Source: Candidatus Gastranaerophilales bacterium (GTDB taxonomy: Bacteria; Cyanobacteriota; Vampirovibrionia; Gastranaerophilales; Gastranaerophilaceae). From it: a DNA stretch of 64,000 bases. The position numbers were made by a program, and so were the translations under genes. The notes below the pieces were generated by a model, which worked only from the letters and a program-made list of their open reading frames with translations, ran no database searches and had not been told where the DNA came from. Shown here piece after piece: positions 36,052-44,622 of the stretch. Within the stretch, counting starts at the first letter, position 1, and the number at the start of each line of letters is the position of its first letter. The stretch is from the NCBI GenBank assembly GCA_944322615.1, contig CALUPH010000008.1, forward strand, positions 7,003 through 71,002, written 5' to 3'.

Positions 36052-37797
36052 TTATAATATGTTTGAAGTAACGGTGAAGTGGAATCTACAAGTATCACGG
36101 TCTCTGCTGTTTGCATAATCTGGTAAACGCTTACCGATTGGGAAGCCCCAATACATATTTGCAGAAATATATTTAGTTAATTTAACAACAATACCAGGAC
36201 CTGCACTCATTAAATAATCAGCACTGCCATCAATAAATCTGTCACCGAACCAGCCGAAATCATAGAAACCGGCAAGTTGTATACTGTCACTAATAAATGC
36301 GTATTTTTCAGGTAGTAAAGCCTTTAATCCAGGAATTGGCATTCTGTATTCAAAGCTAGCTGTAACACCATAGTCACCAATACGGAAACCTTCATCATAA
36401 CCTCTTACACTAGCTATACCACCAAATTGCATAGCTTCTGATGCATATAAGTGTCTGTTAGCGTATTGTCCGTTAACTTGTAAAATAGCCAAATGATTTA
36501 ATGGTAAAACTTGTAAACGCGCAGCACTTGCATTTAATTTTACGAAATTGTTGCTGGACATATCTCTTGCTTTGTTATAGTCAGAAGCATCAATAGGAAT
36601 ACCGCCTGCAATACCACCATTAAATAACCATCTTCCATAGTAGTCATCTTTAACATCTGTTAAAGTAGCTCTTAGAACTCTTGTTCTGTATGCGGAATTT
36701 AACTCAGGGAAAGCACCTGAAGTCATTTCAGTGTTACGCATATCTAAAGTGATATCACCATATAATCTAAAGTCTTCGCCTTGAGCTAATCTTCTTGAAA
36801 CACCAACGAATACATCATGTGATTCACCTTTTAGATTTAAATATTTTAAAGATTTTCCAAGTCTTACATTTGAATAAGAATAACCAACATTCAATCTTGT
36901 GTCATTTGCTGCTATAGGTAAAGAGTACATACCACCAACACCAAGAGAACGAGATGATAATGCAACTGTACCCATTAAGGTATCACCATGGCCTGTTACG
37001 TCGTGTAAACCGGCATATAATACACCTCTTTGTGTTCCGATTAATTCTCTACCTTGGTTATCATATCTAATATCTAAATTGAGAGGAAATCTGTCTTTGA
37101 CATCTAATGTTACGTCTGAAAATTCTTCTGATTCTTCATTATCAGCGAAAGAAACAGCACCCTTCATGTATTCTTCAGTATTCATTTCTGTTAAAGCGTT
37201 ACGAACATCTTTAACATTTAAAATTTTACCGGGTTCGATATTATTATCTTTTAGATAATGTTTATTAAGGTAAGAAGCTCTTTCCCATTTTCCTGGATTG
37301 ATTTCAACGTTACCATATTTACCTTCCAAAATTTTAATTTCAACAGATCCGTTTTTAACTTTTTGCGGAGGAAGATAAGCAATTGTTGAAATGTAACCTT
37401 TTGCTTGATAATAATCAGTAATATCATTAGCAGACATAATCAGGTCATTGATAGTTACTTCTTGACCTATTTTAAAGTCAACCAATCTCATTAAAACATA
37501 AGTTGGAAATACCGTATTTCCTGTTATGTTAATGTTTTTAAGTTTAAAAGTAACCTGTTCGGTGTTAAGAAGTTCCATTTTTTGACGAACTTCTTCTTCA
37601 ACAACAGCAGGATCTTTTGTTTCTTCATATTTGGTTTTAGCTTGATATTGTTTTGCTTGGATAAAGTTTGTATTATCAATCAAACCGGCATCGTAACTAC
37701 CTTGATTAACAAACGTACTTCCGTCAACAGCAAATGCGCTAATCCCTATGATTGAGAAAGCACAAGCTAAAGTTGTTTTTACAAGTATGTTTTTCAT
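36052..37797 (-). CDS. Two-partner secretion outer-membrane transporter (TpsB; ShlB/FhaC/HecB family)
   Basis: Signal peptide. POTRA region FKLKNINITGNTVFP...YYQAKGYISTIAYLPPQKVKNGSVEIKILEGKYG. Conserved loop-6 VRGY motif (GGIASVRGYDEG). Beta-barrel-like C-terminus ending in an aromatic-rich strand. Confidence 0.85.
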   Translation of the reverse strand: MKNILVKTTLACAFSIIGISAFAVDGSTFVNQGSYDAGLIDNTNFIQAKQYQAKTKYEETKDPAVVEEEVRQKMELLNTEQVTFKLKNINITGNTVFPTYVLMRLVDFKIGQEVTINDLIMSANDITDYYQAKGYISTIAYLPPQKVKNGSVEIKILEGKYGNVEINPGKWERASYLNKHYLKDNNIEPGKILNVKDVRNALTEMNTEEYMKGAVSFADNEESEEFSDVTLDVKDRFPLNLDIRYDNQGRELIGTQRGVLYAGLHDVTGHGDTLMGTVALSSRSLGVGGMYSLPIAANDTRLNVGYSYSNVRLGKSLKYLNLKGESHDVFVGVSRRLAQGEDFRLYGDITLDMRNTEMTSGAFPELNSAYRTRVLRATLTDVKDDYYGRWLFNGGIAGGIPIDASDYNKARDMSSNNFVKLNASAARLQVLPLNHLAILQVNGQYANRHLYASEAMQFGGIASVRGYDEGFRIGDYGVTASFEYRMPIPGLKALLPEKYAFISDSIQLAGFYDFGWFGDRFIDGSADYLMSAGPGIVVKLTKYISANMYWGFPIGKRLPDYANSRDRDTCRFHFTVTSNIL

Positions 37798-38157: not shown

Positions 38158-39305
38158 ATGAGAAAATTATTGAGTGCAGCAGTTGCTTTTGGTGTTTTAG
38201 CCTCAACATCTTTAATGCCGATTGCCTATGCAGATGTTGCAGTGAATGCGTTACCAAGTTTGGATAATGCAATTAATGCAAATGTAACAACAAACGGTTC
38301 AAATATGAACATACAAATTCAAGGTGGGCAAGGTAGTCTAGGATCATTACAATGGAATGATTTCAATGTGGGAAAAGATGCAAGTGTAAATTACGAATTT
38401 ACAGCACACAACCAAACAGCATTAAATAAGGTTAATGCAACTGGAGGTATTTCTCAAATATATGGACAAATAACTACATCAGGCTGTGCTGGTTGCGGTT
38501 ATGACGCTACAGGTAAGGTTATATTAATCAATCCAAATGGTGTTTTATTTGGAGATGGAGCAAATGTTAATTTGAATTCATTCACTGTATCAACAATGGA
38601 TGGTGAATATGATAATGTTAATCATCAACTTCAGTTAAACAAAGGTGCTGACCAAAGTGATTTTGGTATTGTGGTTGAAAATGGTGCAAAAGTACATGGT
38701 GATAAGAATGTAACATTTGCATCAAATAACATCACTTTATATAATGGTTCAAAAATTTCAACAAATGTAGGTCCTAATGTTGCAGATACATCATATGGAA
38801 AAGTAAAATTGGTTACTGCTGATGGTGTAAACTTCTCATATTATAACAATGGTGCAATAAAAGAAATTTCTGATATTAAAGGTTCTACTGATAAAATGTT
38901 CATTTCAATTAATGGAGATATACAATCAGGAAATATTGATGTAAGAAATTATTCGACTAATGAAGCAAGTGAAATAAACTTAAAAGGTGCTACATTAAAA
39001 GCAACAAAAGCTGTAAAAGGAAATGATGGAAATATTTGGTTAACAGCATCAAACAAAATTGTAGCAGAAGATACAACATTTGAAACTGCAAATTATTCAG
39101 ATGAAGCAGCATCAAGAGAAGGCGGAAATGTAAGATTTTTAGCAGGCAAGAAAGTTTCAGTAGGAACAAGTAAAATCAATTCTGTAGGAAATGTTGATGT
39201 TACTTCTCAATATTATGATGTAGTATTAGATAAGACAGAAGTAGCAGCAGCTAAAGATGTTAATGTAAAAGCTGCAAATATTGCTTCTATACAAAATGGT
39301 TCAAA
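38158..39305 (+). repeat. Duplicated tpsA 5' segment, copy 1 (about 1.15 kb)
   Basis: Aligns by eye with 40911-42055. The 3' third (about 38941-39305) shows only a few substitutions per 100 nt. Confidence 0.85.
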
Positions 39306-40608
39306 TGTATCAGGAAAAAATGTTTCTTTAAATGGTAAAGCAAGAGCTCAAGTTAATAATTCTGCTGTTACTGCAAATGAAGATGTAAATATAGAATCTG
39401 AAGAGTTAGCTTGGACTGAAAAAGCAGAAATTAATGCAGGAAAAGATATTAATGTTAAAGCTACAAAGGGTTCTTTGTTGTTAAATAATTCATTGATGGC
39501 TGCTAAAAATAATATTAACTTGTCATCTAAAGATTCTGTATCTTCACAAAAATTGGCAGGTACTACATTTACAGCTGACAAAGATGTTAATGTGGAATCA
39601 ACAGAGGACAGTGTAATATTAACAAGTACATCTCAGTTCCAACCTAAAGCTTCTTTGAATTTGAATGCAGCAAAGAATGTTGAAATTAATTCAAAAGGAG
39701 ACTTAACAACTGAAAAAACAAACATTACTGCCGGTGAAAATGTTTTCTTAACATCTGCTGAAGGTTCAGTAAATGTTAAGGATAGCACAAAATTCTTATC
39801 TGGTAAAAAAGTATATATTCAAGGTGCAAATGATGTTAGTACAACAGGCACTGTTGATATGAATAATATTCAAACAAATATTCAAGCTGGCAATGATGTC
39901 GATGTTAATTTGGCAAATGTTGGAAACAGACAAAATGGTTTAATTGCAAAAGCTGGTCATAATATGACAGTTACAACAGACGGCACTTTATCAGTATCAA
40001 GTTTGATTTCAGGTAATGATATGACTCTTAATGCCAATAAAGTAATTGCAGGTCTTCCATATACTGATGAGACAAAATTACCTGAAGATACAGTAAGTGA
40101 ACGTTCATATATTGAAGTAGGCGGTGAGTTTACATCAAATGTTGCAAATGATAATTATGAAATCACAGCATCTGGTGAACCTACTAATGATGGTAAATAT
40201 AACCAAAAACATCATATTCAATACGGCGAAGATGAAAAAATATTATTGGTAAACAAAAGACCAAGAGATAATAATGTAACAGATCCTGATTTGGGCGATA
40301 ATGACAATGGTAATGAAATAGATCCAATAAAACCTGGAGATATTCCAACTGATCCGGATCCTTCAGAACCTGGCGACGGTGGTAACACTGGTGATGGTGG
40401 AGATGGCGGTAACACTGGCGACGGTGGTAACACCGGTGACGGCGGTGATGGCGGTAACACTGGTGACGGTGGCAATACAGGTGATGGCGAAGGCTGTGAT
40501 GATACTCCAAACGGAGATAATGTAGAAAACGAACAAACTCCTGGCTTATTATCAACTGGCGATTTGTTAAAATATTCAGTTCAAACAAATGATAAAAAAC
40601 AATTCTAA
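38158..40608 (+). CDS. TpsA-type exoprotein 1 (haemagglutination-activity/TPS domain, beta-helix repeats, Gly/Asp-rich tail)
   Basis: Signal peptide MRKLLSAAVAFGVLASTSLMPIAYA. TPS-domain motifs WNDFNVG, ALNKV, ILINPNGVLFG. GGAGA RBS before the ATG at 38158 (the track start at 38074 is a GTG extension). Confidence 0.85.
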   Translation: MRKLLSAAVAFGVLASTSLMPIAYADVAVNALPSLDNAINANVTTNGSNMNIQIQGGQGSLGSLQWNDFNVGKDASVNYEFTAHNQTALNKVNATGGISQIYGQITTSGCAGCGYDATGKVILINPNGVLFGDGANVNLNSFTVSTMDGEYDNVNHQLQLNKGADQSDFGIVVENGAKVHGDKNVTFASNNITLYNGSKISTNVGPNVADTSYGKVKLVTADGVNFSYYNNGAIKEISDIKGSTDKMFISINGDIQSGNIDVRNYSTNEASEINLKGATLKATKAVKGNDGNIWLTASNKIVAEDTTFETANYSDEAASREGGNVRFLAGKKVSVGTSKINSVGNVDVTSQYYDVVLDKTEVAAAKDVNVKAANIASIQNGSNVSGKNVSLNGKARAQVNNSAVTANEDVNIESEELAWTEKAEINAGKDINVKATKGSLLLNNSLMAAKNNINLSSKDSVSSQKLAGTTFTADKDVNVESTEDSVILTSTSQFQPKASLNLNAAKNVEINSKGDLTTEKTNITAGENVFLTSAEGSVNVKDSTKFLSGKKVYIQGANDVSTTGTVDMNNIQTNIQAGNDVDVNLANVGNRQNGLIAKAGHNMTVTTDGTLSVSSLISGNDMTLNANKVIAGLPYTDETKLPEDTVSERSYIEVGGEFTSNVANDNYEITASGEPTNDGKYNQKHHIQYGEDEKILLVNKRPRDNNVTDPDLGDNDNGNEIDPIKPGDIPTDPDPSEPGDGGNTGDGGDGGNTGDGGNTGDGGDGGNTGDGGNTGDGEGCDDTPNGDNVENEQTPGLLSTGDLLKYSVQTNDKKQF
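40372..40494 (+). repeat. In-frame tandem repeat encoding (GDGGNT)/(GDGGDGGNT) units
   Basis: PGDGGNTGDGGDGGNTGDGGNTGDGGDGGNTGDGGNTGDGEG. An 18-nt unit nested in a 45-nt higher-order unit, locally GC-rich. It creates spurious antisense ORFs. Confidence 0.9.
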
Positions 40609-40630
40609 TTACTGAATTTTAGTTTGTTTT

Positions 40631-40669
40631 AAAAACAGAGAAAATAATAAAAATTTTCTCTGTTTTTTT
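40631..40669 (+). terminator. Rho-independent terminator after tpsA1
   Basis: CAGAGAAAAT / ATTTTCTCTG 10-bp stem with a 7-nt loop, followed by T7. Confidence 0.7.
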
Positions 40670-40910
40670 GTGTAACAAATTATTAATAAAACTATATTAA
40701 TTTGTAAATTTATCAGACTAAAAGTTTTTTATATAGTATATATAGTTATAGAATTTTAAGAGAGATTTTAATTTAAATACAGTAAAAATTTGTAACAATA
40801 AAAAATAAATTGTAAACAATTTTAATGTATTTAGCAATTTTTTTTTTTAGAGTACTTACAATTAGTATAAAAGAAGAATTATTAACATGAAAAATAAAGG
40901 AAAGAAGAAA

Positions 40911-42055
40911 ATGAAAAAACTTTTAAGCACAACAATCGCGGTAGGTATTTTCGCTTCAATGAGTATTGCTCCTGTATTTGCTGATGTTTCAGCTAATGCA
41001 TTACCAAATCTTAATAATGCAATAAATGCAGATGTAACAACAAACGGTTCAAATATGAACATTCAAATCCAAGGCGGACAAGGTAGTCTTGGAACATTGC
41101 ATTGGAATGATTTTAACGTAGGAAAAGATGCAAGTGTAAATTATGAATTTTCTGCACATAACCAAACAGCATTAAATAAAGTTGATGCAACTGGTGGTAT
41201 TTCTCAAATATATGGTAAAATTACTACTTCAGGATGTGCAGGTTGCGGTTATGACGCTACAGGTAAAGTTATCTTAATCAACCCAAATGGCGTTTTATTT
41301 GGAGATGGCGCAAATGTTAATTTGAATTCATTCACAGTATCTACAATGGATGGTGAATATGACAGTACTACAAATCAACTTCATTTGAACAAAGGTTCTA
41401 ATCAAAGTGATTTTGGTATTGTAGTTGAAAATGGTGCAACAGTTCATGGCGATAAGAACGTGACATTTGCATCAAATAATATCACTTTATACAATGGTTC
41501 AAAAATTTCAACAAATGTAGGTCCTAATGTTGGAGATACATCTTATGGTAAAATCAAATTGGTTACTGCAGATGGTGTAAATTTCACATATTACAATAAT
41601 GGTGCAGTAAAAGAAATTTCTGATATCCAAGGTTCTACTGATAAAATGTTTATTTCTATCAATGGTGATTTAAAAGCCGGAAATATTGATGTAAGAAATT
41701 ATTCAACTAATGAAGCAAGTGAAATAAACTTAAAAGGTGCTACATTAAAAGCTACAAAAGCTGTAGAAGGAAATGACGGAAATATTTGGTTAACAGCATC
41801 AAACAAAATTGTAGCAGAAGATACAACATTTGAAACAGCAAATTATTCTGATGAAGCAGCATCAAGAGAAGGCGGCAATGTAAGATTTTTAGCCGGTAAA
41901 AAAGTTTCAGTAGGAACAAGCAAAATCAATTCTGTAGGAAATGTTGATGTTACTTCTCAATATTATGATGTAGTATTAGACAAGACAGAAGTAGCAGCAG
42001 CTAAAGACGTAAATGTAAAAGCTGCAAACATTGCTTCAATTCAAAATGGTTCAAA
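40911..42055 (+). repeat. Duplicated tpsA 5' segment, copy 2
   Basis: See copy 1 at 38158-39305. Confidence 0.85.
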
Positions 42056-42761
42056 AGTAAAAGCTAAAAATATTAAAGTTAAATCTGATAAAGATGCTTG
42101 GGCTTCTAATTCAAGCTTGGATGCTGATTTAATCACCATTGAAGGTGGTAATGATGTTGTAGCATACAATGTTGATTTGAATAATAAGAAGACTGTAATT
42201 AATGCAGGTAATGATGTTGATATCAATGTTAAAAATGTTGGTGAAAGACAAAATGGTTTAATTGCAAAAGCCGGTCACGATATGAAAATTAAAACTGATG
42301 GTGCGTTATCTGTTTCAAGCTTAATTTCAGGTAATGATATGACTATCGATGCAAAAGAAGTTATTTCAGGTTATGATAAAACTTCAAACATCCTTAGAGA
42401 AGAAGGTGACAGTGCAGATCGTGCATACATTGAAGTTGGCGGTAAATTTACATCAAATCCTTCTTATGAAGTTACTGATTCTGCAGACTTAACTGCTGAT
42501 GGTAAATATAATCAAAGACATCATATTCAATATGGTGATGGTTCAGAAAAAATCTTGTTAGTTACAAAACTTCCTTATACTCCACCAATTGATCCAAACG
42601 TACCGGAAGTTGAAGACGATCAAGCAACAATGTTAAACAAATTACCAAGACAACCTGAAGTATTCAACAATACAACAGTAATAAACGATGGAAGAACAAC
42701 TTTTGTGGATGTATTCGCTGCAGCTAGTCAAATAGAAATTGTTGAAGACGAAGAAGAATAA
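40911..42761 (+). CDS. TpsA-type exoprotein 2 (paralog of tpsA1 with a different central cassette and C-terminal tail)
   Basis: Signal peptide MKKLLSTTIAVGIFASMSIAPVFA and the same TPS motifs. AAAGGAAAG RBS before the ATG at 40911. Confidence 0.85.
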   Translation: MKKLLSTTIAVGIFASMSIAPVFADVSANALPNLNNAINADVTTNGSNMNIQIQGGQGSLGTLHWNDFNVGKDASVNYEFSAHNQTALNKVDATGGISQIYGKITTSGCAGCGYDATGKVILINPNGVLFGDGANVNLNSFTVSTMDGEYDSTTNQLHLNKGSNQSDFGIVVENGATVHGDKNVTFASNNITLYNGSKISTNVGPNVGDTSYGKIKLVTADGVNFTYYNNGAVKEISDIQGSTDKMFISINGDLKAGNIDVRNYSTNEASEINLKGATLKATKAVEGNDGNIWLTASNKIVAEDTTFETANYSDEAASREGGNVRFLAGKKVSVGTSKINSVGNVDVTSQYYDVVLDKTEVAAAKDVNVKAANIASIQNGSKVKAKNIKVKSDKDAWASNSSLDADLITIEGGNDVVAYNVDLNNKKTVINAGNDVDINVKNVGERQNGLIAKAGHDMKIKTDGALSVSSLISGNDMTIDAKEVISGYDKTSNILREEGDSADRAYIEVGGKFTSNPSYEVTDSADLTADGKYNQRHHIQYGDGSEKILLVTKLPYTPPIDPNVPEVEDDQATMLNKLPRQPEVFNNTTVINDGRTTFVDVFAAASQIEIVEDEEE

Positions 42762-42873: not shown

Positions 42874-44622
42874 ATGAATTTAAAATTATGTTGTTTAATT
42901 ATGATACTTACAATTGGTTCTTCTGCTTTTGCTGATGCGATAATAAATCGCAGTCCAACTAGAAGTAGTGCAATACAAAATTCAAGTATTATATTTAGTA
43001 ATTATGATAGCATTTATAAAGACGAGTCTTATAATCCTGCAATTAAAGAAATACAAGACAAAATAAAGAAAAATCCAAATGATTATATTTTATATGTTTC
43101 ATTAGTCGATTTATATATAAAATCAAAAGATTATGATAATGCATATAATGAATTAGTATTCCTGGCAAATTTAGCAAGGCAAAATAAATTAAATTCAACA
43201 GTAATGAATTATGTAAATACCGTGTATGAACATAATAAAAAGTCTGCAAAATATTCAAGAAACAAAGGACCACTTTGCTTAGATTTGTCTTTATTGGCAT
43301 TTATATTAGATGATAAAGAGAGTGCTGAGTCATATATAAATATAGCCTCTAATTATTCATTGAATTCTAATTTATTATCAAATACTCTTAAAATAATTTT
43401 TGATAGCACAGGAAATTTAGAAAAAGCGGTATCTGTATGTGGAAAAGTGATTCTTAAAAATCCAAATGATATTGATTTACGAAAACTGAAAGCCTCATAT
43501 CTTGTTCAAAGTCAGAATTTTGATGCAGCTATTATTGAATATGCAAGTATATTAGATATAAATCCAAATGATGAGGATTCAAAATATTCAATATATAATT
43601 TATTATCACAAAAAGGTGCAGATGAAAAAGAGATAATTAAACAAATATATAAAACAGATAAACCGAATTATGAAATTGTATATTCAGAATTTGCAGATAT
43701 GCTATTAAACAGAGAAGACTTTGATGCTGCTGAACATTACGCTGATATTTTAGTTAATAGTTTTCCAAATAATGCAAAGGGATATATTTTATTATCTGAA
43801 ATTTATATGAAAAAGGGAAAACTTAGAGAGTCTTATGATGTTTTAACAAAAGCAAGAGACAAAGCTGATAGTAATGAATTAATTGCAAAATATAATGTTT
43901 TGCTGGCAAAGTTGTCTGATGAACCTGTAAAAGAGGCAAATTCCTTAATTTCTGCAGGATTATATCAACAGGCACTTGATGTTTTAGACAGCGCAAGCCA
44001 AGAAAATTTATATGTTATATTAACTCAGGCAAGAGCTAATTATCTTTTGAATAATAAGCAGGCAACTTTTGAACTTTTAAATAAATCAATGATTTTATAT
44101 CCAAAAAATTCAGATGTTTATTGTGCTTTTGGTTACATATATTTGCAAGAAAATGATTTAGAAAGTGCAAGAAAGTATGTTAATAATTCATTAAAGATAA
44201 ATCCAAAAAATAAAACAGCTTTAGACTTACAAGATTTACTTAATAGTGCAGAATCACAGAAGTATATAAGTTCAATAATTTCTTCTTACGAAGCCCAAAA
44301 TTATACAGAATCTATGCGATTGGTTGATGAAGCACTTAAAATAAATAAAAAAGATTCTACCTTATATTTTTATAAAGCATTAAACTATATAGCACAAAAT
44401 AATTATGCAGCTTCTACTGCACATTTATATAAATGTTTGGAACTGGATAAAAATAATATACAGGTTTATTTTTATTTAGGGCTTGCTTTTGATAATTTAT
44501 CCGAGTCTGAAAATGCTTTGACGTACTATAGAAAGTTTATAGAATTATTGCCAAAAGATGATTATGGTGAAAGTGAAAAACTTGATTATGCAAAAGCCCG
44601 TATAAGTAAATTGCAAAATTGA
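42874..44622 (+). CDS. Secreted TPR-repeat protein
   Basis: Signal peptide MNLKLCCLIMILTIGSSAFA, then many 34-aa TPR-like repeats (Y..A...Y...L..NP pattern). Confidence 0.8.
   Translation: MNLKLCCLIMILTIGSSAFADAIINRSPTRSSAIQNSSIIFSNYDSIYKDESYNPAIKEIQDKIKKNPNDYILYVSLVDLYIKSKDYDNAYNELVFLANLARQNKLNSTVMNYVNTVYEHNKKSAKYSRNKGPLCLDLSLLAFILDDKESAESYINIASNYSLNSNLLSNTLKIIFDSTGNLEKAVSVCGKVILKNPNDIDLRKLKASYLVQSQNFDAAIIEYASILDINPNDEDSKYSIYNLLSQKGADEKEIIKQIYKTDKPNYEIVYSEFADMLLNREDFDAAEHYADILVNSFPNNAKGYILLSEIYMKKGKLRESYDVLTKARDKADSNELIAKYNVLLAKLSDEPVKEANSLISAGLYQQALDVLDSASQENLYVILTQARANYLLNNKQATFELLNKSMILYPKNSDVYCAFGYIYLQENDLESARKYVNNSLKINPKNKTALDLQDLLNSAESQKYISSIISSYEAQNYTESMRLVDEALKINKKDSTLYFYKALNYIAQNNYAASTAHLYKCLELDKNNIQVYFYLGLAFDNLSESENALTYYRKFIELLPKDDYGESEKLDYAKARISKLQN

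Follow-up and report, generated by a model that had tools for sequence, protein, structure and literature searches.

Concerted evolution of the secretion domains of two tandem TpsA paralogues in Gastranaerophilales

Two tandem tpsA genes and their shared block

The 64-kb stretch of a Gastranaerophilales genome analysed here (the window; positions are counted from its first letter) has a base composition of about 30% G+C and contains the genes of a two-partner (type Vb) secretion system. The transporter gene tpsB is on the minus strand and is divergent from the tandem exoprotein genes tpsA1 and tpsA2 on the plus strand. The secretion domains of the two exoproteins evolve in concert, while the two ends of the genes have remained distinct. 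The genes of the system are as follows.

36052..37797, minus strand: tpsB, outer-membrane TpsB transporter of 581 amino acids (aa); Pfam POTRA_2 (E 5e-19) and ShlB (E 1e-18), both above cut-off
38158..40608, plus strand: tpsA1, long beta-helical exoprotein of 816 aa; PF05860 TPS (E 1e-14) and TIGR01901
40911..42761, plus strand: tpsA2, short beta-helical exoprotein of 616 aa; PF05860 (E 5e-16) and TIGR01901

Both exoproteins score above the family cut-offs (PF05860, 55-60 bits against a cut-off of 33.5; TIGR01901, 57 bits against 29.1), and the conserved NPNG-type motif of the TPS domain is present (LINPNGVLFG). An earlier note on this DNA was thus right to describe them as short TpsA exoproteins. 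Putative signal peptides, which are hydrophobic N-termini ending in AYA or VFA ahead of DV, were found in both sequences. The 1.96-Mb genome has exactly two TPS-domain genes, tpsA1 and tpsA2, and among ShlB-type genes genome-wide tpsB is the sole strong match; a second match is weak, partial and on a different contig. Both TPS domains also carry a CxxC motif (SGCAGCGYD, 38476-38517 and 41226-41267), which AlphaFold places in a loop with lower confidence (predicted local distance difference test, pLDDT, ~62-66) and which is invariant in the aligned homologues of the A1 type (24/24) and the A2 type (36/36). In the literature searched, no description of two-partner secretion in Melainabacteria was found.

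The earlier note had read the two genes as mosaics with a near-identical 5' region, an abrupt loss of similarity and a resumption further on, and had called for a pairwise alignment to fix the breakpoints. By blastn, nucleotides (nt) 72-1152 of tpsA1 match nt 69-1149 of tpsA2 over an ungapped 1,081 nt with 90.7% identity, and a second match joins nt 1660-2066 to nt 1228-1622 with 73.7% identity. Alignment placed sharp edges at 38245/40995 and 39305/42055, and the genes can be divided into the following parts.

38158..38244, plus strand: type-specific 5' end of tpsA1 (signal peptide MRKLLSAAVAFGVLASTSLMPIAYA and a few codons), outside the converted block; fixed differences, synonymous divergence (dS) 1.47
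38245..39305, plus strand: homogenised N block of tpsA1 (mature residues ~30-382, the TPS secretion domain and first coils); ungapped match to 40995-42055
39306..39885, plus strand: central hemagglutinin-repeat coils of tpsA1, with ~108 residues that have no A2 counterpart; hhalign, and Fil_haemagg_2 (E 1e-5, above cut-off)
39886..40251, plus strand: C block of tpsA1 (AGNDVD ... DGKYNQKHHIQYG..EKILLV), the last coils and the beta-helix end; 65% aa and 71% nt identity to tpsA2
40995..42055, plus strand: homogenised N block of tpsA2, the partner of 38245-39305
42056..42563, plus strand: central part and C block of tpsA2 (shortened coils, AGNDVD ... HHIQYG..EKILLV); hhalign, and the C block clusters with A2 orthologues

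The N block is 1,061 nt long and differs between the two genes at 96 positions (9%, or ~91% identity). Its edges are steep on both sides: 32 of the 84 positions in the signal-peptide part on the 5' side differ (38%; Fisher p 1e-11), as do 30 of the 60 nt just 3' of the block (50%; Fisher p 9e-15), so that similarity does end abruptly after IASIQNGS. Within the block, 348 of 365 bases are identical between 38941-39305 and 41691-42055, and the 124-aa stretch NIDVRNYS...IASIQNGS contains a single residue change (K/E). The 96 differences are well spread and keep a clean codon structure, and the ratio of nonsynonymous to synonymous divergence (dN/dS) of the pair is ~0.1. Synonymous divergence follows the same division, with a dS of 0.37 in the N block, 1.47 in the signal-peptide part and 0.79 in the C block. 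Between IASIQNGS and AGNDVD, tpsA1 has a spacer of 582 nt and tpsA2 one of 150 nt; the earlier figures of ~555 and ~125 nt were slightly off. Similarity then resumes and runs to the box DGKYNQ[KR]HHIQYG..EKILLV, which is common to both genes and is followed by unrelated tails, all as had been noticed.

To the central difference a swapped cassette had been ascribed, and that part of the reading did not hold. AlphaFold models of TpsA1 and TpsA2 were made with family alignments. TpsA2 is modelled as a single continuous beta-helix over residues ~25-555 (mean pLDDT 85.5, predicted template modelling score 0.82), and TpsA1 as a single continuous beta-helix over residues ~30-698, disordered from residue 700 (mean pLDDT 79.9). 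The best PDB matches of the TpsA2 model by Foldseek were HxuA, EtpA, HMW1, FHA and HpmA (E 3e-9 to 9e-4). When the A1 and A2 family profiles were compared by hhalign, they were colinear over residues 1-705, with a gap opposite A1 residues 451-558; the A2 protein of the window has lost ~45 further residues relative to other A2 proteins. In the A1 model the central coils form unbroken beta-helix with pLDDT >90. By these profiles and models, the central difference is a gain or loss of coils on a diverged homologous rod. The coil counts are estimated at ~35 for A1 and ~27 for A2, and on the assumption of ~19 residues and 0.48 nm per coil the rods would be ~17 nm and ~13 nm long, respectively.

Concerted evolution of the N blocks

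The locus was compared with those of related species; all of the genomes compared are short-read metagenome assemblies or contigs. The gene order BIG (a giant protease-like gene)-tpsB-tpsA1-tpsA2-TPR-engB is kept in most of ~20 related species, and tpsB holds its syntenic place in all related loci. Across the genus the A1 orthologues are 801-855 aa long, and the A2 type occurs in every complete related locus and is the sole TpsA in three species. The signal peptides are type-specific (A1 or A2) throughout the genus. The earlier note had suggested recent duplication or gene conversion as the source of the likeness between the two genes. Of these, recent duplication is excluded by the genus-wide synteny of both types, and conversion is borne out by the trees, dS values and site patterns given below. 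Three tandem tpsA genes were found in two species (loci L033 of G008 and L035 of G020), and the tpsA array expands as well as homogenises. The extra copies in these two genomes have diverged signal peptides and C-ends. For the species with A2 only, we considered unequal crossing-over between the N blocks and rejected it, because the single gene keeps an A2-type signal peptide and such a deletion would leave an A1-type one.

Within a genome, the N blocks of the two proteins (A1 residues 27-382) are 92% identical in the window, while G001 reaches 98% and G011 99%. Compared with other species, either paralogue is only ~70% identical to either type, and A1-A1 identity equals A1-A2 identity, so the N block carries no orthology signal. 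The C block (residues 577-700) behaves differently: in most species, A1-A1 identity is 77-85% versus 52-70% for A1-A2. G011 is an exception, in which conversion extends into the C block. Species-specific amino-acid states common to both paralogues are repeated across the genus, and the signal of homogenisation within genomes was found in >15 independent assemblies at levels of 75% to 99.9%.

The trees of the two blocks agree with these identities. In the N-block tree, the paralogues of one genome pair at 99-100% support, and the type label needs 9 changes; when A2 monophyly was forced on this block, it was rejected (difference in log likelihood 751, approximately unbiased test p 1e-8). In the C-block tree, built from ten clean pairs, one per genome, the two types are the two sides of one branch (one label change), and clades by genome were rejected (p 8e-4 for the trio of the window, 2e-4 and 3e-6 for others). 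The N-block dS within a genome is 0.004-0.65 in 8 of the 10 genomes (0.004 in G011, 0.05 in G001 and 0.37 in the window), while the values against species beyond the close trio are 0.8-3.3.

The same process can be followed at the scale of strains. Site patterns were scored in a close trio, consisting of the window genome and two close relatives, and three further strains were drawn from ENA contigs for a six-strain comparison. In the three close genomes, 60 sites split all A1 from all A2 copies, and all 60 fall either within gene nt 5-87 or from nt 1149 onwards. Between nt 87 and nt 1149 there are zero type-fixed sites; instead the patterns are mosaic, for example 25 sites with a private allele in both G001 copies. 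The identity of the N blocks within a genome is 86.6, 90.7, 91.4, 95.2, 98.0 and 99.9% in the six strains. The conspecific strain L059 differs little from the window in most of the locus (tpsB 97.7%, A1 centre 99.3%, A1 C block 99.4%, TPR gene 97.9%, engB 99.8%), versus 93.4% (A1) and 94.4% (A2) in the N blocks. Of the 72 differences in its A1 N block, 68 are alleles present in another of the four copies, and they come in short runs. This pattern of alleles is the mark of many short patches of conversion after the two strains diverged. In the comparison of strains that the earlier note had asked for, extended here to species, the N blocks evolve in concert and the tails are conserved by type.

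The comparisons establish the homology and fold of the proteins, the synteny of the locus, the concerted evolution with the boundaries of its tract, and the conservation of the tails. We consider it very likely that tpsA1 and tpsA2 are two old TpsA paralogues with one TpsB, and that their secretion domains have been homogenised by gene conversion. In such a system, one TpsB transporter would serve two tandem, plain beta-helical TpsA rods, and the two genes would be old paralogues, each type conserved genus-wide with its own signal peptide and disordered tail. Recurrent, patchy, RecA-type conversion between direct repeats 2.75 kb apart would homogenise only the N blocks; RecA is encoded in the genome. 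Conversion is probably limited by the ends of homology; its 5' limit would be the type-specific signal peptides, and its 3' limit the coil region, which has diverged and carries indels. Homogenisation may keep both substrates fitted to the single POTRA receptor of TpsB, or it could be a neutral by-product of the tandem arrangement.

Several points weigh against this interpretation or limit it. In G012 and G004 the dS between the N blocks of the paralogues is ~1, and conversion is therefore intermittent, neither universal nor continuous. Short-read assemblers can blur or chimerise near-identical repeats of 1 kb, and the extreme identities (99.9% in L058, 99% in G011) could be partly artefactual. 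The export of TpsA1 and TpsA2 by TpsB and their function are predicted, and the homogenisation may be selected or neutral. Finally, site patterns such as 010100 tie the A1 of one strain to the A2 of another strain, and exchange between strains is needed in addition to conversion within genomes.

These last patterns also belong to an alternative in which allele exchange between strains or species, or else independent partial duplications of recent date, are the main source of the likeness of the N blocks. It would account for G023, whose A2 N block is 95.5% identical to both L058 copies and only 86.6% identical to its own A1, and the divergence of the TPR gene between strains has a profile unlike that of its neighbours. 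Imports alone, however, would not leave the two genes of a genome more closely related to each other than to any other copy, and this pairing recurs independently in G001, G011, G002, G019, G017, G021, G008, L058 and L060. With partial re-duplication, the type-specific signal peptides, promoters and 3' parts would need to be re-established on each occasion. As the main source of the likeness, we regard this alternative as improbable.

C-terminal tails and neighbouring genes

After KILLV, the proteins continue for 118 aa in A1 versus 65 aa in A2, and the two tails are unrelated to each other. The tails and the genes and signals around them are listed below.

40252..40605, plus strand: tpsA1 tail, with a KRP..DP start, a low-complexity spacer, the single-Cys motif GCDDTPNGD..E.TPGLLS and a basic end (..KKQF)
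40370-40489, plus strand: 45-nt tandem repeat in the spacer of the tpsA1 tail, 2.7 copies (tandem-repeat period 45)
42564..42758, plus strand: tpsA2 tail, a Pro-rich linker and then DDQAtMLNKLPRQPE..N.T..DGRTTFVDVFAAASQIEIVEDEEE, conserved among homologues
40631..40669, plus strand: hairpin followed by a T run 3' of tpsA1, terminator-like (fold of 40609-40690, -20.9 kcal/mol, z -5.05)
42874..44622, plus strand: secreted TPR protein of 582 aa, starting 112 nt after tpsA2 (TPR families; synteny)

A conserved head, a common box and unrelated tails are the layout of polymorphic TpsA systems of the contact-dependent inhibition (CDI) type, in which interchangeable effector tails follow a fixed N-terminus and a demarcation box, or in which central cassettes vary among strains. 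The earlier note had compared the box to such a demarcation motif, and the low-complexity part of the A1 tail does differ in repeat number and sequence between strains. However, both tail types are conserved orthologues throughout the genus and among ~120 listed homologues, which is an outcome that the note itself had said would refute its reading. Of the 120 database homologues listed, 95 end in the tail ...DDQAxMLNKLPRQPE..N.T...GRTxFVDVFAAASQIEIxxDEEE. Most of the others have KRPVDNxVTDPxLP..DNGDDVDVVNPG, a hypervariable spacer of Pro, Asp, Gly, Thr and Ser, the motif E-C-P-D-x-P..D....E[DE]xPxLxS and a basic end. The A2 tail is invariant at many positions in the aligned homologues, with the conserved peptide FVDVFAAASQIEI and acidic residues at its end. 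In the A1 tail, C780 is invariant in 24/24 homologues; it is the only Cys of this tail, and the A2 tail has none.

The remaining features of the locus also fit a polymorphic system poorly. The tails, at 65 and 118 aa, are modelled as disordered (pLDDT <50 in AlphaFold for both), and family searches on the tails and central parts matched only hemagglutinin repeats, with no family for either tail. The box forms the last two beta-helix strands (E684-689 and E693-698 in the A1 model) and is therefore not a boundary ahead of a cargo or toxin domain. The central parts differ by an indel of coils, and their backbones are colinear. There is no plausible open reading frame in the intergenic region 40609-40910, and what follows tpsA2 is the conserved 582-aa TPR protein, not an immunity gene; that neither a toxin domain nor an immunity gene is present had been seen correctly before. 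We therefore consider a polymorphic system very unlikely.

Between strains, the tails change only in the copy number of the 45-nt repeat of tpsA1 (A1 proteins of 801-819 aa), and this repeat behaves as a slippage-prone disordered spacer. The repeat is G+C-rich and encodes GDGGNT units; L059 has one unit fewer, and L058 has GDDDPVGG four times instead. When the A2 tail was compared with 1.84 billion representative proteins, 24 matches were found, 22 of which are at or near the end of a protein or fragment of 40-1113 aa. The four longer ones that were inspected are TpsA relatives, and 2 of the 24 are spurious (repeat or PAS-domain noise). Outside the genus, the A2 tail was not found in 149 genomes of the order. 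By these searches, it is restricted to the present TpsA family. A general sorting signal was rejected as its function, since no other protein of the genome has it and the database matches are few. TpsB has a single mature Cys (C570), 12 residues from its C-terminus, in 12 of the 15 species aligned, and its occurrence does not track that of the Cys-bearing A1. A disulfide tether between the Cys of the A1 tail and C570 was also rejected, because two A1-bearing species have no such Cys in TpsB and two A2-only species have it.

The upstream regions of tpsA1 and tpsA2 are unrelated, and the hairpin at 40631-40669 is terminator-like, although a simple terminator scan did not list it. Because of the hairpin and the unrelated upstream regions, tpsA2 probably has its own promoter, and its transcription would be separate from that of tpsA1. 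The TPR gene adjoins tpsA2 in related loci wherever the contig reaches downstream, and it may be functionally linked to the system. Its divergence profile is unusual: it has 81% nt identity to G023 and G001, in which tpsA and tpsB are 90-98% identical to those of the window, yet 92-93% to G015 and L060. This profile suggests allele exchange or fast evolution of the gene.

The conserved tails may be short linear motifs for tethering or partner binding. A more specific proposal, which we regard as a long shot, is that ...NKLPRQPE...FVDVFAAASQIEI and the acidic end of A2, and the Pro-rich spacer, Cys and basic end of A1, would be docking or tethering signals that remain in the periplasm once the rod has gone through TpsB, with the downstream TPR protein as their receptor or chaperone. 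TPR carboxylate clamps bind acidic EEVD ends, which offers an analogy for a TPR protein that reads the A2 tail. If the tails were read in this way, the TPR protein would be a new, lineage-specific accessory component of type Vb secretion.

Assembly, selection and relation to known systems

As all of the sequences come from short-read assemblies, another alternative is that reads of two diverged repeats were collapsed or cross-threaded. The locus does cause trouble for assemblers, since in G015 the contig breaks exactly here: contig C200 (locus L048) ends inside the TPR gene, beside the expected tpsA site, and this explains the apparent absence of tpsA from that genome. The near-identical N blocks probably break short-read assemblies, which makes the 'absence' of tpsA from metagenome-assembled genomes unreliable. 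Collapsed reads do not explain the pair in the window, with its 96 well-spread differences, clean codon structure and dN/dS of ~0.1. Nor do they explain why the same signal is found in >15 independent assemblies, from 75% to 99.9%, or why species-specific amino-acid states in both paralogues recur throughout the genus. The pattern at the species level cannot be an artefact of short-read assembly, and we give an artefact as the general explanation almost no weight. Purifying selection alone, without conversion, is hardly credible: the TPS domain is constrained (dN/dS ~0.1), but constraint can neither bring synonymous divergence down to 0.004-0.37 while orthologues are saturated nor group the sequences by genome.

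Old paralogues with converted secretion domains have a close parallel in Moraxella. In M. catarrhalis, MhaB1 and MhaB2 show 99% identity over residues 72-399 in every isolate, and both proteins are secreted by MhaC (PMC3699455). The two systems are alike in having two TpsA proteins per TpsB and a near-identical N-terminal stretch of ~330 aa, with the block here at residues ~30-382. Unlike MhaB1 and MhaB2, the proteins described here have 616 and 816 aa, are encoded in tandem and belong to a non-photosynthetic relative of cyanobacteria. The locus is further set apart by signal peptides that lie outside the homogenised block and by two C-terminal types that are both conserved in the genus. Moraxella MhaB proteins are much larger than 616 or 816 aa, and MhaB1 and MhaB2 differ over the rest of the protein.

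HMW1A and HMW2A of Haemophilus influenzae, a similar pair of paralogous TpsA adhesins, are ~80% identical overall (PMC10127715). Each of them has a locus of its own with separate B and C genes, whereas here there is one locus with one TpsB and no glycosyltransferase. HMW1A and HMW2A hardly differ in their N-terminal secretion pro-pieces but have diverged in their binding regions, and they are tethered by a C-terminal peptide. The tether of HMW1 uses a Cys pair, in contrast to the single Cys of A1 and the absence of Cys from the A2 tail. The best match of the A2 model is HxuA of H. influenzae (PDB 4rm6 / 4rt6; Foldseek E 3e-9), a short TpsA that is essentially one beta-helix. Its chain has 884 residues, and short TpsA proteins are therefore not unprecedented. 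HxuA and TpsA2 are 14% identical, with profile similarity confined to the TPS and beta-helix part, and there is no sign of hemopexin binding in the proteins described here. In CdiA and meningococcal TpsA, as in the locus described here, recombination targets a particular section of the gene (PMC3848433). There, however, it is the variable 3' end, which encodes a toxin and comes with immunity genes, that is exchanged (PMC3848433). The present locus instead has a homogenised 5' secretion end, and its 3' ends are fixed, encode disordered tails and lack immunity genes.

TpsA1 and TpsA2 may be fibres or adhesins, one longer than the other, that are secreted or displayed on the cell surface. Such a role is suggested by their rod architecture, the lack of an enzymatic or toxin domain and the conserved disordered tails. 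With the toxin/immunity lead removed, attention shifts to the two tail peptides and the neighbouring TPR protein. Concerted heads of TpsA paralogues are already known in the family, and what is new is a well-resolved case in Gastranaerophilales, a lineage of uncultured bacteria of the human and animal gut. It is a well-bounded natural example of concerted evolution, in which a tract of 1.06 kb has been homogenised and the sequence on either side of it has remained distinct as a whole genus radiated. It supports the rule known from Moraxella and Haemophilus that TpsA paralogues sharing a transporter, or matched to one, keep near-identical secretion domains.

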